NCBI GenBank assembly: GCA_016432445.1
Contig: CP066689.1
Span: forward strand, 930,001-962,000
DNA: 32,000 bases
Direction: 5' to 3'
Source of the DNA: Candidatus Saccharimonadota bacterium
GTDB taxonomy: Bacteria > Patescibacteriota > Microgenomatia > UBA1406 > GWC2-37-13
Part shown: piece by piece, positions 4,898 through 27,923 of the stretch
How positions within the stretch are numbered: position 1 is the first letter of the stretch
Layout: every line of letters starts with the position of its first letter
The notes under the pieces: generated by a model
Database searches by the model: none
The model's input: the letters and a program-made list of their open reading frames with translations, nothing else
Told to the model about the DNA's origin: nothing
Program-made: the position numbers and the translations under genes

Positions 4898-4922
4898 TAA
4901 TAACGAACATTAAATATTAACT

Positions 4923-5016
4923 GATCTTAGATGTTAGATCTGAGATCTTAGATTAAATAAAAAATTTTAATACCAAAAATCGAATATCAAAGATCTAAGA
5001 TCAAAGATCTCAAATC
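4923..5016. repeat. family B palindromic repeat (AGATCT-based heptamers/octamers)
   Basis: gatcttagatgttagatctgagatcttagat ... atcaaagatctaagatcaaagatctcaaatctt. Smaller relatives lie at about 20290-20318, 22513-22535 and 24241-24252. Confidence 0.65.
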
Positions 5017-5664
5017 TTAAGAGGCCATCACAATAACCTTCTGTTCTTCGCTTAAATCTTCTTTCTTAACCACCAGTTTGTCAACTGGGTTTACCTCATC
5101 AATCCCCATCTCTTTCAGAAAATCAGAAACCGGTGATAATTTGGAACGAAGCTCTTCAGACAGTTTTTCCTGACTATAGTGCATTGGAATTATGATTGAA
5201 GGATCTAGTTTTTTAACTAAGGAAGCCGCAGTTGTTGCATCTATGGTGTAAGTTCCTCCGATGGGTACAAATAAAATATCAATATTACCTATTTCTTCAT
5301 AAAGTTCATCGTTAAGTAAATCTCCTAGATCACCACAATGAAGTAGTGTAAGATTTTCTGCTTCAATTTTATAAAGAATATTTTCGCCTCTCTCCAGACC
5401 TTTTTTGTTATCATGGTACCACTTATAGCCAAAAACTCGAATACCGTTTTTTTCAAACTCTCCCGGCCAATCAATAACAAGAGGATCGCCGCTGACTCCT
5501 TGAACAAAGTTATGATCGGCATGAGAATGAGATATGGTTACCACATCTGCTTCTATTTTAGGAAAACTCATCCCAACCATTTGAGAACTGAAAGGATCAG
5601 TCACCAGTTTAGCATCTTTTGTTTTTATCAAGAAAGCCGAGTGGCCCAAATATTTAATTTCCAT
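5017..5664 (-). CDS. MBL-fold metallo-hydrolase
   Basis: MEIKYLGHSAFLIKT... with the HxHxDH motif (SHSHADHN). The start is placed at the ATG at 5664 rather than the track's upstream extension. Confidence 0.8.
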   Translation of the reverse strand: MEIKYLGHSAFLIKTKDAKLVTDPFSSQMVGMSFPKIEADVVTISHSHADHNFVQGVSGDPLVIDWPGEFEKNGIRVFGYKWYHDNKKGLERGENILYKIEAENLTLLHCGDLGDLLNDELYEEIGNIDILFVPIGGTYTIDATTAASLVKKLDPSIIIPMHYSQEKLSEELRSKLSPVSDFLKEMGIDEVNPVDKLVVKKEDLSEEQKVIVMAS

Positions 5665-6268: not shown

Positions 6269-6287
6269 TATTGTAAAATATTAAGTT

Positions 6288-6352
6288 GGTTATGGGTTTT
6301 GGGTTGTGGGTTCTGGGTTTTAACTCATCACTCATAACCCATAACTCAGAAC
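6288..6352. repeat. family A palindromic repeat, intergenic copy
   Basis: ggttatgggttttgggttgtgggttctgggtttt-aactcatcactcataacccataactcagaac. It shares its ends (GGTTATGGGTT ... CCCATAACTCAGAAC) with the copy at 10868-10938. Confidence 0.75.
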
Positions 6353-10645: not shown

Positions 10646-11236
10646 TTAGATTTTACTCATGGCAAAGTAGCTAACAATGGCTGCGGAGACTATCACATTT
10701 AAAGACTTATTGATTCCCCACATGGGAATTTCCACAATTTGGTCAACAAGTTCAAGCGTTTCCGGCAAAACTCCAAAAGTTTCATTACCAACAAGAAGCG
10801 CTAAAGGAGTTTGATAATTGGCCGACCTATAATCAATAGCTTTTTCACTTTGCTCCACAGCGATAATGGTTATGGGTTGTGAGTTTTGAGTTTTGAGTTT
10901 TTGTTTTGACCAAGAACCCATAACCCATAACTCAGAACTTCTTAAATCGTTAATTGCCTCTCTTGCTGTAGCTTTATATTCCCAAGATATCATCTTATAG
11001 GTGCCAATGGATGCTTTTTTGATCTTAGGATTTGGTGGAATTTCCGTCTGTCCGCATAAATAAATTTTTTCAATAGCTAAAGCATCAGCTAAACGGAAAA
11101 GACCGCCGACATTATAAGTATCATAAACATTTTCCAAAATAAAATATATTGGATGGCGTTTAATAGTTTTAAGACGCTCTTTTAGTTTTTCATCTTCCTC
11201 TTGAGCTTCCCGAAGTTCCCGAGCGGTCATTTTCAT
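10646..11236 (-). CDS. SpoU/TrmH-family RNA 2'-O-methyltransferase
   Basis: SpoU motifs YNVGGLFRLADA, LLVGNETFGV and IPMWGINKSLNVIVSAAI. The start is set at MKMTAREL (11236) because a TATAAT box lies 6 nt upstream. Confidence 0.85.
   Translation of the reverse strand: MKMTARELREAQEEDEKLKERLKTIKRHPIYFILENVYDTYNVGGLFRLADALAIEKIYLCGQTEIPPNPKIKKASIGTYKMISWEYKATAREAINDLRSSELWVMGSWSKQKLKTQNSQPITIIAVEQSEKAIDYRSANYQTPLALLVGNETFGVLPETLELVDQIVEIPMWGINKSLNVIVSAAIVSYFAMSKI
10868..10938 (-). repeat. family A palindromic repeat inserted in frame in the SpoU methyltransferase gene
   Basis: Sense-strand reading is gttctgagttatgggttatgggttcttggtcaaaacaaaaactcaaaactcaaaactcacaacccataacc, translating as SSELWVMGSWSKQKLKTQNSQPIT. 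Confidence 0.75.
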
Positions 11237-12242: not shown

Positions 12243-12271
12243 TTGAAAAATCGTATTAATTATGGTATATT
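12243..12271 (+). promoter_or_regulatory. sigma70-like promoter of GC-rich cassette 1
   Basis: TTGAAA (12243-12248), 17 nt, TGg-TATATT (-10 at 12266-12271). An ATG at 12279 would open an 18-codon leaderless mini-ORF (MKNSLNIADQLRLILVGF). Confidence 0.45.
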
Positions 12272-12386
12272 ATAGGATATGAAAAACTCATTAAACATAG
12301 CGGATCAGCTCCGCCTTATTTTAGTGGGTTTTTAAGTGACTTAAAAAGCCTTTATCAACTTGCTTGGTAATAAGCTTCAAAGTCGC

Positions 12387-12410
12387 ACTTTAACAGTTAG
12401 GGTTCAGATT
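12387..12410 (+). repeat. cassette 5' boundary box plus left arm of a 14-bp inverted repeat
   Basis: ACTTTAACAG (12387-12396) followed by TTAGGGTTCAGATT (12397-12410). The exact reverse complement lies at 13698-13711. The same box occurs at 23480-23501, with a variant at 27045-27080. Confidence 0.7.
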
Positions 12411-12432
12411 TTTAGAAATAGGAGGAAAGGAA

Positions 12433-12669
12433 GTGCAAACCGTATCGCTGCCCTTGTGGCAGTTGATGATGTATCTGCTTGGAGGAATGGTATTAGGCAT
12501 TATTCTCTATGTGGTTTTGAAGGATAGAATCATTCAAACCATTGGAAAACTGATGCGAAACCCAAAGCTCACACAGATTATCATCTTTGTAGTTGCAGTA
12601 ATCTGGTTCGCCGCCATGATTTACTCGTGGTGGATAACAGACACCTGGCCTTGGCCAATCAGGATGTAG
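12433..12669 (+). CDS. small two-TM membrane protein (GC-rich cassette 1)
   Basis: GGAGGAAAGGAA precedes the GTG start. Two hydrophobic helices (LMMYLLGGMVLGIILYVVL; IIIFVVAVIWFAAMIYSWWI) and a Trp-rich tail. No family recognised. Confidence 0.55.
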   Translation: MQTVSLPLWQLMMYLLGGMVLGIILYVVLKDRIIQTIGKLMRNPKLTQIIIFVVAVIWFAAMIYSWWITDTWPWPIRM

Positions 12670-12706
12670 GAGGAGATATCATGATCTTAACAAAAGCAAG
12701 CTTTTT

Positions 12707-12724
12707 TGACTCTAGCTAGAGTCA
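12707..12724. promoter_or_regulatory. perfect 18-bp palindrome between the two cassette-1 cistrons
   Basis: TGACTCTAG|CTAGAGTCA. Confidence 0.4.
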
Positions 12725-12783
12725 GGGAAGCTAAGCGAATAGCCGACAAGAAATCAACGATCGATCACGAAAGGAGTTCTAAA

Positions 12784-13686
12784 ATGGGTAAAGCAATTAA
12801 CCTTGCCCTACGCGTAATAGGTGCTGCAGTTGTCTTGTTTATCGCGGTCGCCCTCATCTGGGGGCCGTTAAACGACAACCTGCGGCCTACCAAAAGCTCG
12901 GCAGACGGGACAACTCCCGTTCCGACCGTAGCCTCTGTTTCGCCTACTGCTACACCGACTGCCACCAACACGCCCACGCCTGCAGCTTCCGCAACCGCTG
13001 TTCCGCCTACTACAACCCCTGCGCCCAAAGTCGCTGTACCCTGTCCGACAGACGAGGAAATGCGGCGAGCGCTTGAATTCGACCGGCTCGGCATCAAACC
13101 CGTGTTCACTGGCGAGGGAATCGTCTGGGATCCCTGTAAGTGGAATTGGCAAAGCAACGATCTTAATGCCGTTCCGATTACCCTCCCTGACGGTTGGCAA
13201 GCAACTACAACTCGCGGCAGTGATGGAGCAGTCCAGGTATGGAAAGGCCCGGCGCCAAAGATGGATGTCCGCGGCTTCACCCTCCGTTTCTTACGGCCCT
13301 ACGACAGACAGGAGTCTCGGTGGGCCCTCGACAATTGCGAACTCCTCACAAGGGAGAACGCTTTTGGCGAACGGCGTAACCCATCCTATCCAACCACTAA
13401 CGGCAATGTTTCTTGTGCTTCCAACCCACCCAAAAACTCTGGTTCCGGAAGCATCTCCAAATCCTGGCTTCGCGACAATGTCGGAGGCCGCGAGGACAAG
13501 TGGACCGAGCCTGACTGGTCTGGTGGCGCCTGGGTCTACAAGGACAAGGGAACCTTTGTCCCTATGAAATACCCTGGCTCCGGGGAGTTGACCGTTTGGA
13601 TCAGTGGTGGTCCAGTGATTATAACTTCAGCCAATGCCAGCCGACTCAATGGCCAAAGTTTCGACGAGGCTTCATTCAAGCCGTAG
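12784..13686 (+). CDS. TM-anchored protein with a Pro/Thr/Ala linker and a Cys/Trp-containing C-terminal domain (GC-rich cassette 1)
   Basis: AAGGAG lies 7 nt before the ATG at 12784, which I prefer to the track's TTG at 12706. MGKAINLALRVIGAAVVLFIAVALIW is the TM anchor. TPVPTVASVSPTATPTATNTPTPAASATAVPPTTTPAP is the linker. A ~200-aa domain of unknown family follows. Confidence 0.65.
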   Translation: MGKAINLALRVIGAAVVLFIAVALIWGPLNDNLRPTKSSADGTTPVPTVASVSPTATPTATNTPTPAASATAVPPTTTPAPKVAVPCPTDEEMRRALEFDRLGIKPVFTGEGIVWDPCKWNWQSNDLNAVPITLPDGWQATTTRGSDGAVQVWKGPAPKMDVRGFTLRFLRPYDRQESRWALDNCELLTRENAFGERRNPSYPTTNGNVSCASNPPKNSGSGSISKSWLRDNVGGREDKWTEPDWSGGAWVYKDKGTFVPMKYPGSGELTVWISGGPVIITSANASRLNGQSFDEASFKP

Positions 13687-13697
13687 CCGAACCGGCC

Positions 13698-13810
13698 AAT
13701 CTGAACCCTAATCTATCTGGGGAAGTGGAGTTGATCTCTTTCGCGATGCTTACGCATCGCAATCGCTTTACCGCGATTTAGAGTATCTTCTCCCCCTTCC
13801 CCCAGTTTTT
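13698..13810 (+). repeat. cassette 1 3' boundary: right inverted-repeat arm plus nested-hairpin trailer ending in a T-run
   Basis: AATCTGAACCCTAA (13698-13711). CTGGGGAAGTGGAG (13717-13730) pairs imperfectly with CTCCCCCTTCCCCCAG (13790-13805). This encloses GCGATGC-ttac-GCATCGC and AATCGC-tttacc-GCGATT, followed by TTTTT. It contains GCTTTACCGCGA (13765-13776), identical to 27856-27867. Confidence 0.65.
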
Positions 13811-16903: not shown

Positions 16904-19900
16904 AGACCGCAGCCGAAAATTTATATCTCTTATCATTTTGCACGCAGTAATCCTTATTATATTACTCATGAATTTTTCATGGGGAAAATATTTTACAGGT
17001 TGGGATGCCATTAATCCCGAATATAATTTCAGCCTAAATTTTCAGCGGTCTTTGTCAGCTTTTTGGCAGGAAAACTATGGATTAGGAACCATAGGCGGGC
17101 ACGGATTCGCGGCTCTTTTACCTCACACCGCAGTTACCTATTTGTTTTCTGTTATTTTTCCTCAGTGGGCAATTAGGACCATTTTTACTTTTTTTAGCTT
17201 TTACCTTGGCAGTGTAGGAATGTTTTTTTTAGTTCGATTTATAATTCAAAAATTGAGAGATGATAAAAAACTTAATTATTTTTTGCAGGATATACTAGAA
17301 AAAAATCAAGAATATTTAGCCTTAGCAGCTTCATTATTTTATATTCTTAATCTAGGAACGACTCAAACTTTTTATGTTCAGCTTGAACCTTTCATTGTCC
17401 AGTTTGCAGCTCTTCCTTGGCTTTTCTGGATTATTATCCGACTTCTAGATAACTGGAATAAAAAGAATCTACTATTATTTTTTTTCATTAATTTTTTAGC
17501 TACAATACAAGGATTTATTCCTTCTTTATTTGTCGCCTATGCTACAGCTTTAAGCATATTTATTATAATGACGGCTTTTTTTCATCGAAAATCGCCAATT
17601 TATTTAAAAAATATTTCCCTTATTGCGATCTTAACTCTGATTATAAACTTATACTGGATTATTCCTTTGGGCCATTATGTTTTAACTCAAAATCAGTCGT
17701 TTTTAAGCGCTTACAATAATCTTCAATCTACTCCTAATTTTGTTGAGGTTAGTAAAAAATATGGAAATTTACCTAATGTCGCCTTGCTCAAAAGCTATTT
17801 GTTTGATTCAGTTCAGTTTAATATACCAGTTCTTAAACCTTGGATTAATCATCTGAATAATCCTTTAACTGTTTTTATTGGCTATATATTTTTTTTGATT
17901 GTAGTAGGCGGAGCTGTTTTTTCATTTTACTTTTTTAGACAATATCTCCCCAAAATCTTGGCCATTATTTTTATTTTCTTTTTTGGCAATATAGCTATTT
18001 CAACTCCGCCGTTTTCTTTTGTAATAAACATCTTGCAAAGTCTCTCCCCCACCTTTGAGCAGGCTTTCCGCAATACTTTTACTAAATTTAGTATTGGTCT
18101 TGCTTTTGAATACAGCATATTTTTTAGTTTTGGACTGATTTTTTTACTTTTCTTTAAAAAGAAATATCTAAGATTTAACTGGAATAATAAGTATTTTTTT
18201 ACTATAATTATTTGTAGCCTTATTTTTTATTCGTTTCCAGTCTTCACCGGCAACTTAATTTATAAGAATCTTCTTCTAAAAATACCTCAAGCTTATTTTG
18301 ATATTTTTGATTATTTTAAAACTCAAACAGATGGAAGAATTGCTGATTTTCCTCAAGATTGCCCTGAAGGATGGTACAGCTATAGTTGGGGTTACATCGG
18401 TTCAGGATTTCAATGGTATGGCGTAAAACAACCTTTTGCTTCCCGCACTTTTGATGTCTGGAGCAATAATAATGAAAATTATTTTTGGCAAATAAATCAA
18501 GCTATCAGCGAGAAAAACTATGCACTCGTGGACTCCGTCTTTAATAAGTACAATATTCGTTGGATTTATTATGATCCCAATATAAAACACTGTCGGGATC
18601 AAAAAGCGTTTCTTCAGTATGATAATTTTATTCAATATTTATCCTTATCTAATAAGTACACCTTAGTAAAAACCTTTCCTTCTGATAATATTGCGTCCAT
18701 AAAGCTTTTTGAAAACAAATATTTTTCAGATAATAGTTCTTATGCAGGAGCGATTAACAACTTAGCGAACATTGGTCCTTTTTACAAATGGAATGATGAC
18801 GATCGGGCTTTTTTTGAGCGGGATGATTATATGACTACAGAAAATAAGGATTATGATATCTATTACCCTTTCCGTTCTCTATTTACCAAAAGAAGTTCTG
18901 AAGAAAAAGAATATAGCCTTAAGACTTTGAATAACTGGATTATATTCAGCAATACTATTCCCAAAAACGTTCAAAATTATATTTTTAAAACTAAAAATTA
19001 CAATGATATAGAGAAAAAACTGCCATTTTTCTTAAAGTTAACAAAAGTTGATAACACCACTTATGAAATTTTCCTTTCTTACATTTTTCCCCAGCTGTTT
19101 ATTGATGGAAAAAAATTATTAAATTACCAACCATCTTATAAGTTGGGAACTTTCAGAACTGATGAGTTTAAAGTAATGATTAATAATCTTGAAGCAGAGG
19201 GTGATGATGGACTATATAAAGATTATTTTACTCTTAATACATCCAATAAAATAGAAATTATTAACAGCTCTTCTGCACCAATTTTTTCTTGGGATAGCGA
19301 ATCAGATATTTTGTATAAAAACATCATCAGCAAAAATTTTACTCTTAATATCCCCTCTTTTGAAAATGGTTATCTTGAAGTGATAACTCCTAAAATCAGT
19401 GATAAAAAGTTAAATGGTTATGAGGTTTACTCTGAGCTTGACAGTAATCTACCTCAACCTTGCGAAAAGAATACTCTAAATAAAAATCTTTCCTATGAAA
19501 TCGGAAAAGAGCAAGGAATCAATTTCGTCCGGCTTATATCAAAAAAATTCAATCAATGCTTGATATATAATCTCGATCAAGTTTCAGCGGCAAACAGTTA
19601 TTTACTGGAGATAATCTCAAGAAATATAAGCGGTGCTAATCCGCTTTTTTACATTTTTAATCGTAAAGGAGAACGTTACCTTGACTTAAATATTAACAAC
19701 AACTCCTTATTCAAAAATCACTCTTATATTATTCCGGCAGTGGCAGAAGGCGAGTTGGGTTATTACTTGCACTTTGTTAATAAAGCCGGTATCAAACAAC
19801 AAACCATAAATGACTTTGGAGGCTTTGGATTATGGCAAATACCCTATGAATTTATTAAAACAATTAAGTTTCAAAATAAAGTTACAAATAATTTAACAAT

Positions 19901-20294: not shown

Positions 20295-20324
20295 GATCGA
20301 TTATCAAAGATCTAATGTGCTACG

Positions 20325-20347: not shown

Positions 20348-22513
20348 ATGAAAACTCTCTCTCATCTCCAAGTTAGGAACCCTAAAGATGATGAAACGCC
20401 AATTGAGGCTTCAACTCAGATCTTCTCATCTCTAGTCCCCTATCCTTTTATACCTTTATGGAGGAGACTTCTTTTTTCGCCGCGGACTTATGCTTTTGAA
20501 ATTTTTCTTTTAGGCCAGACTGTTTATTTTTATATCTCTGCTCCCTCGGAAAACGAAACCTTAATCCAAAGTCTCGTTACTTCATCTTTTCCTCAATCGG
20601 TTCTTCAGAAAACCACTGACCCTATGGATATTGTTTTAAAATCCAAACATATTATGGCTGGAGAGGCTTGTCTTAACGCCGCTTTTTATTATCCGATTAA
20701 AACTTATATGGATTTTACGGATGTTGATCCAATGGCTGCACTTTTAGGTTTTTTAGCAAAACAACCTGCCAATATCAAAATGGCTGTCCAGATACTGATA
20801 ACCCCAGCTTCATTCCCGTGGCAAAGTCAAGCTGTAGCCGCAGCAGCACTACAGTCTTTAGATGAAGCCTCGGAAAAATATGTCCGTAATCCTCATCAGC
20901 TTTTGATTATGAGAAAAGCTTCATTTCAAGGAGGTAGAACTGCTATCCGCTTAGTTGTCGGTTCAGACACTGATAACACACCGCTTCTTCCTTATCTACA
21001 AAACCTGGCCGGAACTTTTGGCACTTTTTCTTTGGGTGAAGGCAATCAGTTTGTTTTTAAGCGACCTTTATTTACGAAACAGCGTTTCCTTTCCCGGGTT
21101 AAAAAAAGAAAGATAAATTATTTTGAACGGCAAAACCAGATCTTAAATGCTCAGGAAATCGCCAGTATTTGGCATCCTCCAGGGTTTCTACTGGCCGGAA
21201 TTAAAAATGTGGCCTGGGGTAAGACTCTGGCTGGAGAGCCGCCTGAAAATCTGCCTGTTTCTGAAGGTATTACCGATCAGGAAAAACAAGGCGTCAACTT
21301 TTTTGCTAAAACCGAGTTTAAAAACAAGGAAACTATTTTTGGTATTAAAGATGCCGACCGGCGCAAGCATGTTTACATTATTGGAAAAACCGGAGCTGGA
21401 AAATCTACCCTCATTGCCAACATGGCTATAGACGATATCAGAAAAGACAGGGGCATTGGTATTATCGATCCCCACGGCGATTTGTCAGAAACTATTCTTG
21501 ATTTTATTCCCAAAAGACGCCTTAATGATGTTATTTACCTTGAACCTTTTGATACAGAAAGACCTTTTTCTTTAAATGTCTTGGAAATTAAAAACAAACA
21601 GCATAAAGATTTAGTTGCTTCAGGCATTGTTTCCATTTTCAATAAGCTTTATAAAGAAAGCTGGGGACCTCGTCTGGAGTATATTCTAAGGAATGTTATT
21701 TTAACCCTGCTTGAAATACCCAATGCAACTCTCATTGATGTTTTATCGCTTCTAGCCCAAGAGGATTACCGCAGAAAAGTAGTCCGTGAGATTCAAGATC
21801 CAGTCATTAAAAATTTCTGGGAAAAAGAGTTTGCTAAGATGCCAGACCGTCTGAAAGCTGAAGCCATTTCCCCTATTCAAAATAAGGTCGGACAGTTTGT
21901 TTCCTCCAAAATGATCAGGAATATTATTGGTAAACCAAAATCTTCAATTGATCTTGAAGCCGCCATGAATGAAGGGAAAATACTGATCTTAAATCTCTCC
22001 CAGGGAAAACTTGGAGAAGATAATGCGGCTTTGCTTGGCGCCATGATGATCACTCAGATCCAGCTTGCGGCCATGAACCGTTCTTTTGTCAAAGAGGAAG
22101 ATAGAAAAGATTTTTTCCTTTATGTTGATGAGTTTCAAAATTTTGCCACCTCATCTTTTGTAAAGATCTTATCTGAAGCAAGAAAATATCGGTTATCTTT
22201 AGCTTTGGCTAACCAGTACATTGAACAGCTTGAAGAAGAAATTCAAAACGCAATATTTGGCAATGTCGGTACACTTATGTCATTTGTTGTGGGTGCCCGC
22301 GACTCGGAAATATTATCTAAAGAGTATGGCGAAATTTACACTGAAAGTGATTTAGTCTCCCTTGGAAAACATGAGATTGTTTTGAAGCTTTCTATCGATA
22401 ATATGACCTCTGCTCCATTCCCGGCCAAGACCCTTCCTCTTCCTGCCTTAAAAAATGAAAATAGAGAAAAAATAATCAAGTTATCGAAAGAAAAATATGG
22501 AAGGAAGGTATAA
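20348..22513 (+). CDS. TraD/VirD4/TraG-like (type IV coupling-protein-like) P-loop ATPase with a ~340-aa N-terminal domain of unknown function
   Basis: Walker A IIGKTGAGKST, Walker B FFLYVDEFQNF, and LALANQY. There is no N-terminal TM helix and no other T4SS gene in the window. Confidence 0.75.
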   Translation: MKTLSHLQVRNPKDDETPIEASTQIFSSLVPYPFIPLWRRLLFSPRTYAFEIFLLGQTVYFYISAPSENETLIQSLVTSSFPQSVLQKTTDPMDIVLKSKHIMAGEACLNAAFYYPIKTYMDFTDVDPMAALLGFLAKQPANIKMAVQILITPASFPWQSQAVAAAALQSLDEASEKYVRNPHQLLIMRKASFQGGRTAIRLVVGSDTDNTPLLPYLQNLAGTFGTFSLGEGNQFVFKRPLFTKQRFLSRVKKRKINYFERQNQILNAQEIASIWHPPGFLLAGIKNVAWGKTLAGEPPENLPVSEGITDQEKQGVNFFAKTEFKNKETIFGIKDADRRKHVYIIGKTGAGKSTLIANMAIDDIRKDRGIGIIDPHGDLSETILDFIPKRRLNDVIYLEPFDTERPFSLNVLEIKNKQHKDLVASGIVSIFNKLYKESWGPRLEYILRNVILTLLEIPNATLIDVLSLLAQEDYRRKVVREIQDPVIKNFWEKEFAKMPDRLKAEAISPIQNKVGQFVSSKMIRNIIGKPKSSIDLEAAMNEGKILILNLSQGKLGEDNAALLGAMMITQIQLAAMNRSFVKEEDRKDFFLYVDEFQNFATSSFVKILSEARKYRLSLALANQYIEQLEEEIQNAIFGNVGTLMSFVVGARDSEILSKEYGEIYTESDLVSLGKHEIVLKLSIDNMTSAPFPAKTLPLPALKNENREKIIKLSKEKYGRKV

Positions 22514-22515
22514 GA

Positions 22516-22767
22516 TTAGATCTTTGATCTCTCTTTCTTCTTCCTCAATCTATTTAAAAAGTAACCTAAAACTGCTCCGGCGGCAACTTTTATAATTTCC
22601 GATTTGCCCAATCTAGTTATGGACTCAACTTTTTCCGTGGCCTCAGATTTTAGTTTCTCGACTTTTCGATAAGTCATCCATAAAAAAACAGCCGCTACGA
22701 TAATTAAAATAAACCATGAAATCATCACTGCAATTCCTAAAATATAGAAAATTGTTTGAATATCCAT
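22516..22767 (-). CDS. small membrane protein
   Basis: N-terminal TM helix (IFYILGIAVMISWFILIIVAAVFLW), a helical linker, and a basic tail. It abuts the ytxH stop, so operon arrangement is likely. Confidence 0.55.
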   Translation of the reverse strand: MDIQTIFYILGIAVMISWFILIIVAAVFLWMTYRKVEKLKSEATEKVESITRLGKSEIIKVAAGAVLGYFLNRLRKKKERSKI

Positions 22768-23256: not shown

Positions 23257-23315
23257 GTCAAAATCCAAAATCCAAATAATAAAAAATCATTTGACATTTG
23301 AAATTTGGATTTTAT
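23257..23315. repeat. family C palindromic repeat, second copy
   Basis: gtcaaaatccaaaatccaaataataaaaaatcatttgacatttgaaatttggattttatgg. Confidence 0.65.
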
Positions 23316-23368
23316 GGAGCGTTTCGTTCAACTCTCTTGTACAGATAAAGAAAATCTTCTATAGGTTA

Positions 23369-23377
23369 TGCTATAAT
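23369..23377 (+). promoter_or_regulatory. extended -10 promoter (TGcTATAAT) of GC-rich cassette 2
   Basis: TG at 23369-23370 and TATAAT at 23372-23377. No good -35 box seen. Confidence 0.35.
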
Positions 23378-23479
23378 AATAGCAATATTCAAATATGGGT
23401 TGGTACAACGCCATATTTTTACCTTGAAAGTCTTTACGTCTTTTCAGCGTAAGATAGGAAATATTGGACTTTTAAGGGA

Positions 23480-23501
23480 ACTTTAACAGACAGGGTTCAG
23501 A
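23480..23501 (+). repeat. cassette 5' boundary box plus left arm of a 10-bp inverted repeat
   Basis: ACTTTAACAG (23480-23489), AC, then AGGGTTCAGA (23492-23501). The exact reverse complement lies at 24113-24122. Confidence 0.65.
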
Positions 23502-23608
23502 AAAAAAGAAAATGAAAAGAGGGTAAAAAAAACAAAAGAAAAATAGAATAAAGTATAGTGGAAAAATACAGTCTCAACTGTATCTCTCATGTCAGAAAGG
23601 AAAGGAAA

Positions 23609-24109
23609 ATGAAAATTCTATCCGCGATCCTAGTTTCCGTAATTCTGCTGGTAGGATGCGAGTCATCCGCTCCAACGTATTCCGGCGGGTACGTTAGCCA
23701 GCAACCACCAAGTCAGTCTCAATCCCAGGCAGCGCCGTCAAATCCAGTATCCGCAGTGATGCTGACTAGCGACAACCTTGACCAGTACATTGGGGGGGCG
23801 CCGTGGGGATACGCGCCATCGCAGTCGGCAAACTGCAATCGGCAAATTGTGGGCTACGATCCAGTAGCTCAGATCACCTTTTCCAAAGGTACTGCCCTGA
23901 TACCAGATTTACAGGGCTTACCCGCAACTTACAAGGTCTTTGACAAATCGCGGTTTTTAGTAACCATCGCCTCAGCAACGCAGTGGGTTTTCGAGTACGT
24001 GAGTATGAAAAAAATCGTGCTTGATCAACCAGCGCGGCCCAACCTTGTCGCCGGACCAGGACCAACCCCCACTCCTTACCCCAAACCAATCTGTGTCTAC
24101 ACCAGGTAG
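23609..24109 (+). CDS. lipoprotein of unknown function (GC-rich cassette 2)
   Basis: AAAGGAAAGGAAA precedes the ATG at 23609. MKILSAILVSVILLVGC is a signal peptide with lipobox L-V-G-C. The mature N-terminus is Gln/Ser/Pro-rich, and the tail is PGPTPTPYPKPIC. Confidence 0.65.
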   Translation: MKILSAILVSVILLVGCESSAPTYSGGYVSQQPPSQSQSQAAPSNPVSAVMLTSDNLDQYIGGAPWGYAPSQSANCNRQIVGYDPVAQITFSKGTALIPDLQGLPATYKVFDKSRFLVTIASATQWVFEYVSMKKIVLDQPARPNLVAGPGPTPTPYPKPICVYTR

Positions 24110-24110
24110 G

Positions 24111-24200
24111 AATCTGAACCCTTATCTCAACGAGGGGCTTTGTTGTTTTAAAACAACCCGCAACCCGCGGTCAAAAAAACAACTTAGCCCCTCCCCACCC
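24111..24200 (+). repeat. cassette 2 3' boundary: right inverted-repeat arm plus hairpin trailer
   Basis: AATCTGAACCCTTATCT (24111-24127). GAGGGGCT (24132-24139) pairs with AGCCCCTC (24186-24193), enclosing the perfect palindrome GTTGTTTTAAAACAAC (24142-24157). Confidence 0.6.
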
Positions 24201-24201
24201 T

Positions 24202-25056
24202 CAACATTCAACCTCTGGAGTTGAAAGTATTGTTGTAACGGTCTAGATCTTAATTTTTACCACTTCTTCGCATGCTTAATGAATTCTAAAGTTTTTTGAT
24301 AGTCTGCGTTCATAAGTACAAATCTTTCATATCGATCTTTGTCTTTCTGAAAAAGGTCAAGGATAAATTCATCATTACTCAACCTTTTTTTATTGTTAGA
24401 TAAATATTCTTTAAAAGAAGATAAATGATAATTTTCTAAATCCTTAATATTTTCGATTACGCTTGATGAATAAGGATTAAGATGAATATAACGGGAGACG
24501 TGTTTTAGTTGTTCGTCATTTAATATCCTCACTGATTTAAATTTAGGCAAAAAAATCGGACCTCTTCTTTTATTCTTAATATTGTAATACCTCGTAAATG
24601 AATTGAGAACGTCGGAAATAAATCGAGGGATACCTTCATCCGTTTTTTGCCTTAACAAAAAATGGAAGTGTGTAGGCATTAAGCAAAAAGCCATGATTTC
24701 TACTTTAAAATATTTTTTAAATGAAACCTCATTCATGAGATTTTCAACTATTTTTTTATCAGTTATTTTTAATTTAGAAAAACTTATTGCTGCCTTTAAG
24801 GAACGGTAGTAAGCAAGAAGTTGCATAAAAATATTTGTATTGCTGTCTCTAATTTTAAATATTACTCTGTGATCAATTGTCCTGTTAAAAACGTGATAGA
24901 TTGAATTGTTTAGAAAAGGTTCAAGTCGTTGAGGCATGAGAAAAATTTACCTCAATCATAACCTTAGTTACAACGGATTATCGTCAACAAAAGTGAGGAA
25001 AAAATCATATCTAGACTGTCTTGACAACCTTTTCAACTCCAGGGGTTGACATATTG
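24202..25056 (-). mobile_element. IS200-like / RAYT-type element: a Y1 HUH transposase gene flanked by ~47-bp inverted REP-like repeats
   Basis: The left repeat (24202-24248) and the reverse complement of the right repeat (25009-25056) share TCAACC, CTGGAGTTGAAA, TTGT and a terminal GTCTAGAT. Each holds a TCAAC/GTTGA hairpin. Confidence 0.75.
24257..24937 (-). CDS. IS200-like HUH-Y1 transposase (REP-associated tyrosine transposase type)
   Basis: HUH motif in CLMPTHFHFLLRQ and the catalytic-Tyr helix in VSRYIHLNP. At 226 aa it has a C-terminal extension, typical of RAYT-like rather than minimal IS200 TnpA. Confidence 0.85.
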   Translation of the reverse strand: MPQRLEPFLNNSIYHVFNRTIDHRVIFKIRDSNTNIFMQLLAYYRSLKAAISFSKLKITDKKIVENLMNEVSFKKYFKVEIMAFCLMPTHFHFLLRQKTDEGIPRFISDVLNSFTRYYNIKNKRRGPIFLPKFKSVRILNDEQLKHVSRYIHLNPYSSSVIENIKDLENYHLSSFKEYLSNNKKRLSNDEFILDLFQKDKDRYERFVLMNADYQKTLEFIKHAKKW

Positions 25057-25742: not shown

Positions 25743-25786
25743 ATAGACTGCTACACCAACTCTTTCAACTCCGAGGTTGATTTTAT
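25743..25786 (+). repeat. third REP-like copy (solo), same orientation as the right repeat of the RAYT element
   Basis: ATAGACTGCTACACCAACTCTTTCAACTCCGAGGTTGATTTTATG compared with CTAGACTGTCTTGACAACCTTTTCAACTCCAGGGGTTGACATATTG (25011-25056). Confidence 0.6.
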
Positions 25787-26952: not shown

Positions 26953-26981
26953 TTGTTAAACCTATAGTTATCTGATAGAAT
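26953..26981 (+). promoter_or_regulatory. sigma70-like promoter of GC-rich cassette 3
   Basis: TTGTTA (26953-26958), 17 nt, TAGAAT (26976-26981). Confidence 0.4.
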
Positions 26982-27042
26982 ATTTTACTGGAGATAAACA
27001 TAAGGTAAAAGCTGCCTTAAGGCTATTTCCAGTGATCTATTT

Positions 27043-27135
27043 GCACTTTGATAACTTGCGGCCCCGCTTAGCGGGGTTCAACGAGTGAGATTAATGTCGG
27101 ACAAATCTTTTGCCCTACCCTAGTCTCACTTGTTG
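27043..27135 (+). repeat. cassette 3 5' boundary: variant box with two local hairpins
   Basis: GCACTTTGATAAC (27043-27055). Hairpin CCCCGC-tta-GCGGGG (27062-27076) runs into GGGGTTCA. CAACGAGTGAGA (27079-27090) pairs with TCTCACTTGTTG (27124-27135); its single G-T position is only tolerated as G-U in a plus-strand RNA. Confidence 0.55.
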
Positions 27136-27165
27136 AGATAATAATGACGAAAGGAGGTAAATAAA

Positions 27166-27363
27166 ATGTGGAAGTGTACGAAGTGCGGACAAGAAGTCGA
27201 GGACCAAGGAAAACATCAGGTTAGGTTGGTTTGGTGTACTCGGTGTCACGATTATCATCAAGCCGACAAAATCGGCCCCAGTCACGCGTGCTACAGAGCA
27301 ATCTCTTGGGAAGAACACGGCGAAGACAAACTCTGCGAATCAGGCTCGTTCATCCACGTCTAA
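27166..27363 (+). CDS. small Zn-ribbon-like protein (GC-rich cassette 3)
   Basis: GAAAGGAGG lies 8 nt before the ATG. MWKCTKCGQ...WCTRCHDYH gives a CxxC...CxxC pattern. Confidence 0.5.
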   Translation: MWKCTKCGQEVEDQGKHQVRLVWCTRCHDYHQADKIGPSHACYRAISWEEHGEDKLCESGSFIHV

Positions 27364-27406
27364 GTAAGCTCGGCAAAGACAGATTAAACATAGAGGAAAA
27401 GAGGGG

Positions 27407-27778
27407 ATGTCTAAACCAACGATCAGTTTCAAACTATCTTGCCCCGACGGCTGCATAGTCATTCCTACAGGAACATCTTTAACTAAGGAGGAACAATGGG
27501 CTCTGGCTATTCTATACACCGCGGCAGCGCGAGCAAAAGAAGGCGGTTTGATTCCAATTGGACTCAGCCAGTTTTTGACACTGTCAAGTGAACCAGGAAC
27601 TCCGTGGACCAAAGTTCCCAACTGCCAAGAAAAAATAGCCGAAGCGATTTTCGGACTAGGCCAAAAACGCCTACTTAAGATTGTCGAAGGCGCCAAGGAT
27701 CTTTACATCGTTCCGCTCAGGACATTAGCCCATTTACTGAAAAAATGTACACTACAACCTCAACCAATTAACGTGTAA
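27407..27778 (+). CDS. hypothetical protein (GC-rich cassette 3)
   Basis: 123-aa ORF co-oriented with the Zn-ribbon ORF, with a GAGGA/GAGGGG purine run upstream. No family recognised. Confidence 0.45.
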   Translation: MSKPTISFKLSCPDGCIVIPTGTSLTKEEQWALAILYTAAARAKEGGLIPIGLSQFLTLSSEPGTPWTKVPNCQEKIAEAIFGLGQKRLLKIVEGAKDLYIVPLRTLAHLLKKCTLQPQPINV

Positions 27779-27855
27779 GGAAAGGAGTTGACCGCAAGAT
27801 CAAAGATAGGACACTGAAAAGTAAACTGAAGAAATATAGAAGCTACCAAGCCGTA

Positions 27856-27890
27856 GCTTTACCGCGACAACGTCGTCGCTTTCTTCTTTT
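27856..27890 (+). terminator. cassette 3 3' box plus intrinsic-terminator-like hairpin
   Basis: GCTTTACCGCGA (27856-27867) is identical to 13765-13776. It overlaps GCGAC-aacgtc-GTCGC, which is followed by TTTCTTCTTTT. Confidence 0.5.
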
Positions 27891-27923
27891 CACCCACTCA
27901 TTGTCCTATTTTTTTGGCCAAAA

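Follow-up and report, generated by a model that had tools for sequence, protein, structure and literature searches.

The window analysed in this study, 32,000 nucleotides of contig CP066689.1 of a Candidatus Saccharimonadota bacterium (positions 930,001 to 962,000 of the forward strand; coordinates below are those of the window), contains at 23369–24207 a GC-rich unit, cassette 2, in which the gene of a predicted lipoprotein is enclosed by a short inverted repeat. The same architecture recurs in this genome and in related genomes, the arms of the repeat covary, a leader motif is associated with GC-rich islands and the RNA folds in silico with its two arms paired. We tentatively propose, giving the idea nearly an even chance, that cassette 2 is an autonomous mRNA whose 5′ and 3′ untranslated regions (UTRs) pair into a closing helix of 10–13 bp beside a stable trailer hairpin. 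The cassettes are best filed as a lineage-wide variant of bacterial mRNAs with paired 5′ and 3′ UTRs.

On the plus strand, the left arm AGGGTTCAGA is located at 23492–23501 and its exact reverse complement TCTGAACCCT at 24113–24122, and the pair encloses the open reading frame (ORF) at 23609–24109. The TAG stop codon occupies positions 24107–24109 and the right arm begins 3 nt further on. A first-pass annotation of this DNA had described the repeat in these terms, and both its coordinates and the exact complementarity were confirmed. Taken alone the repeat is marginal, as 3.3% of shuffles gave an inverted repeat of 10 bp that joins the 5′ UTR to the 3′ region; it is convincing because it is recurrent elsewhere, not on its own statistics. 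Four exact copies of the 10-mer are present in the window, and they form two plus/minus pairs that flank the two most GC-rich islands. The second of these units is cassette 1 (12243–13807, plus strand), whose arms span 12385–13711 and form a 14-bp inverted repeat, a length matched in none of 5000 shuffles. Cassettes 1 and 2 have in common a 22-nt 5′ block, ACTTTAACAGNNAGGGTTCAGA (two occurrences compared with 0.02 expected), and a 17-nt 3′ block, AATCTGAACCCTWATCT. Behind the latter, both cassettes have a C-rich tail preceded by a hairpin of high stability, the base of which is G-rich/C-rich. The leader motif of cassette 2 has an identical counterpart, ACTTTAACAG, upstream of cassette 1, and 16 of 17 bases of the cassette 2 3′ block are the same at 13698–13714 in cassette 1. 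The inverted repeat of cassette 2 is real and not a product of chance.

For a detailed characterization of the design we compared 12 units, four in this genome and eight in related Microgenomates genomes of the candidate phyla radiation (CPR), with the relative loci labelled by L-numbers. The glycosyltransferase next to the cassettes has its best homologues in Gottesman-, Roizman- and Shapirobacteria, which assigns the host to the Microgenomates group of the CPR. Some relatives were reached via homologues of a cassette 1 protein and further ones via this glycosyltransferase; all of the latter have GC-rich islands at the glycosyltransferase locus, and two of them, L015 and L017, carry unrelated cargo there. 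The order of elements in the four plus eight units is: own promoter, hairpin, motif, left arm, cargo, right arm and a purine-rich/C-rich trailer hairpin. The left arm directly follows the leader motif GCNCTTT[A/G/T]A[A/C/T]A, and its complement is found either shortly behind the final stop codon or where the trailer ends. Promoters are predicted 55–115 nt upstream of the motif, and motif and arms lie on the strand of the ORFs in 12 of 12 units. In a set of 144 kb with 11 GC-rich islands, the motif [GA][CA]NCTTT[AGT]A[ACT]A was found in sense orientation at most 700 nt upstream of 10 islands (the 11th is cut by a contig end), against a background of 29 matches in 288 kb of strand. The idea of a repeated type of cassette, raised in the first-pass annotation, was thus right in outline, as inverted repeat and boundaries recur in further units. 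Among the features that were expected in other copies, the inverted repeat was found in other cassettes, while the purine-rich tract behind the left arm is not shared by cassette 1.

The arm sequences themselves differ. The arm is TTAGGGTTCAGATT in window cassettes 1 and 2, TAGGCTAGCTAGTA in L007/L010, GGTTTTACAG in L013/L014, AACGATAACCTAAG in L016, GGTAGAACAG in L015, TTCCGGGA in L017c/L021c and AGTTCATTGAG in cassette 4. As a control, each left region was matched against each right region and the longest Watson–Crick match was scored. Cognate left and right regions gave a mean longest match of 9.9 nt, with matches of at least 10 nt in 7 of 12 cases, compared with a mean of 6.6 nt and matches of at least 10 nt in 1 of 130 cases for non-cognate regions. 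The seven arm sequences, although unrelated between lineages, all keep their complementarity, and the excess of cognate over non-cognate matches across differing arms indicates that complementarity is conserved and sequence is not.

Folding of the 823-nt predicted cassette 2 RNA supported this picture. Both the minimum free energy (MFE) and the centroid structure contained the helix AGA.AGGGUUCAGA / UCUGAACCCU..UCU together with the trailer hairpin. The helix extends the left arm by an AGA at 23488–23490, giving 13 bp with an interruption, and its 3′ strand is provided by the boundary block AATCTGAACCCTTATCT (24111–24127), which comprises the right arm and a UCU at 24125–24127. Both arms lie downstream of the predicted promoter and ahead of the trailer end, which places complementary 5′- and 3′-UTR segments on one predicted transcript, and no intrinsic terminator was predicted between the two arms. 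The trailer (24132–24207) consists of a stable hairpin at 24132–24193, with a G-rich/C-rich base (GAGGGGCT...AGCCCCTC; −33.5 kcal/mol, z = −5.2), and a C-rich tail to 24207; trailers of a comparable type are found in cassettes 1, 3 and 4 and in the relatives. Two hairpins in the 5′ leader, at 23391–23418 (followed by a U run) and 23422–23477, recur in the MFE and centroid folds of the whole predicted transcript (leader fold z = −4.7). Between these hairpins and the left arm lies the leader motif GAACTTTAACAGAC (23478–23491), with its core CTTTAACA at 23481–23488.

Comparison of two relatives adds to the evidence for pairing at the RNA level. The leaders at L017 7884–8406 and L021 7803–8324 are 89% identical over 529 nt, compared with 72–81% in the flanking genes, and an A-to-G change between L017c and L021c keeps a motif–trailer pair as G–U. 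Some cassette leaders are 300–700 nt long with conserved blocks, for example L007 85–356 compared with L016 7880–8295; the long conserved leaders, which have no Rfam match, suggest a large structured leader RNA.

In three of the related genomes (L006, L009 and L015), the glycosyltransferase gene is immediately preceded by a type III hammerhead ribozyme with the CUGAUGA...GAAA core, three stems of which stem III is open, and an NUH cleavage site. Rfam assigned the sequences at L009 1665–1758 (30.3 bits, E = 0.004) and L015 8476–8594 (25.7 bits) to Hammerhead_3, and the one at L006 1722–1795, for which there was no Rfam report, was recognized by hand parsing and folding. Long stem II inserts, present in all three ribozymes, keep both Rfam scores below the gathering score. 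In two of the three hammerhead lineages, L015 and L006, no gap separates the right arm from the strand that contains the cleavage site. In L015 the ATG start codon of the glycosyltransferase gene (8588) is located inside stem III, and self-cleavage could unmask it. A split or discontinuous hammerhead was considered for the window and rejected, as no CUGAUGA...GAAA was found on the sense strand near the cassettes. Rfam searches returned tRNA only for the whole window at the gathering threshold, noise only for cassette 2 at an E-value threshold, and hammerheads and one tRNA only for the relatives; by this search the window cassettes contain no known riboswitch or ribozyme. Taken together, the position of motif and arms inside the predicted unit on the coding strand, the contact between arm and hammerhead, the fold, the conservation of the leader and the G–U change favour an action of the arms at the RNA level.

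The following course of events would be consistent with these observations. The extended −10 promoter of cassette 2 would start a transcript with a structured 5′ UTR of approximately 230 nt, in which the conserved AU-rich leader motif CUUUAACA lies immediately 5′ of the left arm. Once the polymerase has moved past the stop codon, the right arm could pair with the left arm, so that the ribosome-binding site and the coding sequence would be enclosed in a loop of 611 nt, and the very stable trailer hairpin would form beside the closing helix. By analogy to hbs and icaR mRNAs (see below), helix and hairpin might control the access of ribonucleases and hence the stability of the mRNA: the helix may mask or position a candidate endonuclease site at the AU-rich leader motif, and the trailer hairpin may block 3′ exonucleases. 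A ribosome that terminates at the stop codon would cover the right arm with its footprint; translation would thereby open the helix, and mRNA stability would depend on it. In the hammerhead-bearing relatives, a cut just after the right arm would separate the cassette RNA from the downstream glycosyltransferase operon, so that the helix would retain the new 3′ end of the cassette RNA and the start codon of the next gene would become free.

The closest cases studied by experiment are two single genes. One is that of the Bacillus subtilis hbs mRNA, in which a long-range 5′-UTR/3′-UTR interaction of 14 bp masks an RNase Y site and modulates cleavage (PMC5737220). Cassette 2 resembles it in having a predicted UTR–UTR helix of 10–14 bp, a short mRNA that is expected to be stable, a structured leader and an AU-rich potential endonuclease site beside the helix. 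Unlike hbs, the cassette design recurs on many unrelated genes of one lineage and includes a conserved motif, a G-rich/C-rich trailer hairpin, GC-rich cargo and, in some cases, hammerheads. In the Staphylococcus aureus icaR mRNA, the 3′ UTR pairs with the Shine–Dalgarno region, which blocks translation and creates an RNase III site (PMC3868564). The left arm of cassette 2, in contrast, is located approximately 95 nt upstream of the Shine–Dalgarno sequence, which it does not cover, and the C-rich tail pairs with a G-rich strand within the trailer and not with the true Shine–Dalgarno sequence. Hammerheads that flank genes in polycistronic transcripts of bacteria and prophages have been proposed to process long transcripts into gene-length mRNAs (PMC3088659). 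The type III hammerheads that separate the cassette from the next gene in L006, L009 and L015 are similar to these, although the relatives have a single ribozyme on the 3′ side, placed directly behind the long-range helix so that it adjoins or overlaps the start codon that comes next, and the window cassettes have no hammerhead core.

Several observations weigh against the closing-helix model. Transcription across both arms, their pairing in vivo and any effect of this pairing are what we infer from sequence. The position of the right arm varies, as it lies 0–14 nt past the stop codon in six units and 66–476 nt past it in the other six. The arms are nearly all perfectly Watson–Crick paired, with one G–U in approximately 80 bp, and the energies of the sense and antisense duplexes do not differ, which would also fit a cause at the DNA level. 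Cassettes 1 and 2 share their 22-nt and 17-nt boundary blocks, yet the remaining parts of their leaders can barely be aligned; this counts against a pure RNA-helix model, since such a model needs no shared sequence. Nor does the model account for the GC-rich cargo. Finally, gene-flanking inverted repeats can arise in another way in this region. A VirD4/TrwB-like gene (20348–22513) is flanked by a perfect 14-bp inverted repeat, ATCAAAGATCTAAT / ATTAGATCTTTGAT, at 20303–20316 and 22515–22528, the right arm starting 1 nt past the stop codon and the left arm overlapping a promoter region, and this repeat is built from a dispersed GATCT-rich repeat that is also present at 4922–5017, at 18156 and in the cassette 4 leader (L018, about 4855).

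The last example raises the question whether the cassette arms, too, are copies of short dispersed repeats of the repetitive extragenic palindromic (REP)-like kind, which act locally as terminator, stabiliser or operator and whose complementarity is a by-product. The four copies of AGGGTTCAGA in the window would fit this explanation. In the relatives, however, each arm sequence occurs once per orientation within 17–21 kb and always as the cognate pair, no additional copy of AGGGTTCAGA is present in 20 kb of flanking genome, and the left arm is always found directly behind the leader motif. The enrichment of cognate over non-cognate matches would also be unexpected for independent local elements. 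We therefore regard this explanation as quite unlikely.

Near-perfect Watson–Crick arms would fit a homogenisation at the DNA level, as it might occur in invertons, in which a DNA invertase acting at the inverted repeats flips a gene relative to a fixed promoter and would make a surface lipoprotein phase-variable. The cassettes indeed share with invertons perfect inverted repeats of 10–14 bp that flank genes, a promoter outside the repeat and cargo that is often secreted or associated with the envelope. On the other hand, the ORFs are in sense orientation to motif and promoter in all 12 cassettes, and a flipped orientation was found in none of the 12 cassettes and approximately 25 contigs from several samples, a comparison of low power because it drew on assembled consensus sequences. 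The two arms have unlike flanks, as only the left one adjoins the conserved motif, arm sequences vary among the cassettes of one genome so that there is no repeat consensus per genome, no invertase or recombinase was matched by Pfam in the window, and the cargo of cassettes 3 and 4 looks cytoplasmic. Phase variation by inversion is thus a rather improbable explanation for the arms.

The composition of the cargo leads to a further explanation at the DNA level. G+C content at third codon positions (GC3) is 0.55–0.58 in the cargo of cassettes 1 and 2 and 0.18–0.35 (about 0.28) in host genes, and T at third codon positions is 0.19–0.25 in this cargo compared with 0.40 in the host. The cargo is therefore compositionally foreign, as noted in the first-pass annotation, and the cassettes might be mobile or exchangeable gene cassettes, their arms and motif being scars or sites of an integron-like or RNA-mediated capture of foreign genes into a standard leader/trailer frame. 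Several observations are in line with such an exchange. At the site in front of the glycosyltransferase operon, relatives carry cargo that is not homologous (family X in contrast to unrelated cargo in L015 and L017), and cassettes 1 and 2 have their common boundary blocks around unrelated cargo. Gain or loss can also be seen: the L017c/L021c cassette occupies a position at which the window has no more than 53 bp between the two neighbouring genes, and L021 lacks one (cassette A) of the two tandem cassettes found upstream of the glycosyltransferase operon in L017. Like integron cassettes, the units are compact, carry a single ORF or a small number of ORFs whose composition is foreign, have a structured element at the 3′ side, can be arranged in tandem (L017) and have an inverted core sequence at the left boundary and again just past the ORF.

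Unlike integron cassettes, they have their own promoters and long leaders and are scattered rather than arrayed. The cassette 2 trailer does not match attC with its R″/R′ boxes: TCTGAAC fits RYYYAAC at five of seven positions, no GTTRRRY is found at the distal, C-rich end of the trailer, and there is no R″-L″...L′-R′ hairpin. No intI or other integrase or recombinase was detected among the 20 window ORFs scanned with Pfam, and no target-site duplications were found. The arms differ within one genome, and hence there is no common recognition site besides the left-hand motif. In deeply diverged genomes, family-X cargo is found as orthologues in conserved synteny, which speaks for long residence and not for recent capture. 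Exchange by capture is, in our view, unlikely as the explanation of the arms. Three points keep it alive and leave room for the RNA-defined variant discussed below: the GC-rich orthologous cargo, the blocks shared only by cassettes 1 and 2 and the recurrence of the decamer GCTTTACCGC. This decamer is found in cassette trailers and leaders across genomes (window 13765–13774 and 27856–27865; L017 about 8310 and 8615).

The trailer of cassette 2 ends at 24207, 1 nt before the first REP hairpin, TCAACCTCTGGAGTTGA, of a REP-associated tyrosine transposase (RAYT) element on the minus strand (24208–25049), which lies outside the cassette. The gene of this element (24257–24937) encodes a Y1 transposase of 226 amino acids (Pfam Y1_Tnp, E = 3e-6) with the HUH-like motif HFH and the motif YIHLNP, and it is flanked by inverted arms of 51 nt with REP hairpins at 24208–24224 and 25033–25049; a third REP is located at 25765–25780. 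The proximity of trailer and left REP had been reported correctly in the first-pass annotation, from which it was further suggested that the cassette is bracketed by REP-like sequences and that the transposase recognises REP-like boundary boxes and mobilises it. This part could not be supported. The REP-like half-site placed at 23338–23350 is in fact at 23327–23339, 11 nt off, and has no palindromic partner, so that cassette 2 has a REP on its right side only (24208). The octamer TTCAAC[CT]C of the half-site occurs 10 times in the window, mostly within genes. In about 52 kb of this genome there are three REP hairpins of the type TCAAC-N6-7-GTTGA, and each of them belongs to the RAYT element (24208, 25033 and 25765). 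Only 1 of 12 cassettes adjoins a RAYT or REP, and neither was found beside cassettes 1, 3 and 4 or the eight relative cassettes. The arms are unrelated to REPs and differ between cassettes, and one transposase could therefore not recognise all of them. As a rule, a RAYT is a domesticated gene present in one copy, and its targets are REPs or REPINs and not cargo genes (PMC5581495, PMC2817692). The neighbour of cassette 2 is a typical RAYT between inverted REP hairpins, as in known RAYT/REP (REPIN) systems (PMC2817692, PMC3116915, PMC5581495), whereas cassette 2 lacks a REP on the left and has arms not related to REPs and sister cassettes without RAYT. Mobilisation of the cassette by this transposase is very improbable; the position of the element is most readily explained by insertion beside a structured intergenic site, and it looks like a bystander to cassette 2.

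Upstream of the coding sequence, cassette 2 contains further elements, all on the plus strand. Its extended −10 promoter TGCTATAAT is predicted from the sequence at 23369–23377. The tract between the left arm and the ribosome-binding site (23499–23570), claimed earlier to be about 90% purine, is A-rich, with 86% purine and 68% A overall and 89% purine in its core (23502–23554). A-rich stretches 3′ of the left arm are also present in L007, L015 and L016, but in cassette 1 the start codon follows the arm after no more than 22 nt. The tract is followed by a small hairpin, ATACAGT-CTCA-ACTGTAT, seen in sequence and fold (23566–23583), and by the Shine–Dalgarno-like sequence AAGGAAAGGA (23597–23606). 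A terminator-like hairpin with a U run opens the leaders of cassettes 1 (12300–12322) and 2 (23391–23421), approximately 20–30 nt past the predicted start, and may be an attenuator. The leader motif was also considered as a sigma-70 −35 element (TTAACA, TTGACA, TTGAAA, TTGATA and TTTACA variants). This was rejected, as no consistent −10 element was found 16–18 nt downstream in the 12 cassettes and extended −10 promoters are located further upstream.

The cargo gene of cassette 2 (23609–24109, plus strand; GC 0.53, GC3 0.55) encodes a predicted lipoprotein of 166 amino acids. Its N-terminus, MKILSAILVSVILLVGC, fits the lipobox pattern [LVI][ASTVI][GAS]C with a positive charge at K2 in the N-region, a hydrophobic core and L-V-G-C at Cys17, which, like the Shine–Dalgarno sequence, agrees with the first-pass annotation. 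The protein is an orphan. It has no Pfam match, only the identical sequence was retrieved among 5.8 billion clusters, and only weak repeat-type matches were retrieved among 1.84 billion representatives. It is restricted to contigs of the same organism, where its context is constant, and a single-sequence AlphaFold2 model reached a predicted local distance difference test (pLDDT) score of 36.7, too low for the model to be of use. A diversity-generating retroelement was rejected, as there is neither a reverse transcriptase nor a pair of template and variable repeats.

Cassette 1 starts with a predicted promoter (TG + TATATT, 12243–12271), followed by motif and left arm GCACTTTAACAGTTAGGGTTCAGATT (12385–12410), two ORFs for a membrane protein of 78 amino acids (12433–12669) and a secreted Cys-rich protein of 300 amino acids (12784–13686), the right arm AATCTGAACCCTAA (13698–13711) and a trailer hairpin (13717–13807; z = −5.9). 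Homologues of the 300-residue protein, 29–55% identical, are GC-rich too and are encoded in related genomes at the same site upstream of the glycosyltransferase operon; cargo stays GC-rich even in cases of orthology and synteny between deeply diverged genomes. A lipoprotein-like relative of 440 amino acids (35% identity) is encoded at L012 9395–10717, in a genome with 58–60% GC, next to a transposase and a CRISPR-like repeat array, and hence the family of the cassette 1 protein is not limited to AT-rich CPR genomes. Cassette 3 (26953–27900, plus strand) is degenerate. It has a promoter (TG + TAGAAT, 26953–26981), motif and left arm CTTTGAT(AA)CTTGCGG (27046–27061), two ORFs for a zinc-ribbon-like protein of 65 amino acids (27166–27363) and a protein of 123 amino acids (27407–27778), the right arm CCGCAAGATCAAAG (27792–27805) and a trailer with GCTTTACCGC and a pyrimidine-rich tail; its arms bracket 27043–27805. 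Cassette 4, the one cassette added by the 20 kb of flanking genome, is likewise degenerate and is located just outside the window on the minus strand (L018 5000–3990), with the promoter TGGTATAAT, the arms AGTTCATTGAG / CTCAGTGAACT and a protein of 249 amino acids without signal peptide. Secreted or envelope proteins make up much of the cargo (cassettes 1 and 2; L013, L015–L017).

A scan of viral contigs with the boundary pattern gave no match, and a single GTDB match, in a metagenome-assembled genome of Acidobacteriota, was taken as chance, as approximately one match was expected for 20 specified bases in 1.2e12 positions. Other repeats were seen in the region. An AT-rich palindromic element, AAAATCCAAAT...ATTTGGATTTT, occurs twice, upstream of a copper ATPase gene (1118–1217) and between a YtxH gene and the cassette 2 promoter (23259–23315). 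Intergenic arrays of short repeats of the GGGTTATGGGTT / AACCCATAAC type are located at 2565–2646, 6287–6352 and 10865–10938 of the window and at 2640–3060 of L010, where they flank a small gene for a four-helix-bundle (IVS-like) protein that lies on the opposite strand inside the cassette leader.

One further interpretation extends the paired termini beyond the control of mRNA stability. The GC-rich islands of Microgenomates might be RNA-defined, exchangeable expression cassettes, that is, closed molecules with paired termini that are possibly circular, panhandle-shaped or mobile as RNA. Each would have its own promoter and would be excised from longer transcripts, some lineages using a hammerhead and others an RNase that cuts at the leader motif. 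Systems that combine ribozymes with RtcB for circularisation use the same geometry of paired termini, and it is therefore conceivable that the cassettes give rise to mRNAs of circular or panhandle shape, or even move between genomes as RNA. We consider this interpretation a long shot. If it were true, movement via an RNA intermediate could explain the foreign composition that is common to unrelated cargo.

To our knowledge, pairing between the UTRs of a bacterial mRNA is known from a few single genes only. If the closing-helix model is correct, an ultra-small uncultured lineage packages a set of genes, many of them for secreted or envelope proteins and all of foreign composition, in a common RNA design, and the natural covariation within this family would offer a comparative handle on how pairing controls the life of an mRNA. 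A separate question is raised by GC3 values near 0.55 in genomes near 0.28, even for orthologous and syntenic cargo. Under the closing-helix model, the design would mark genes that CPR bacteria treat specially, surface proteins perhaps included.

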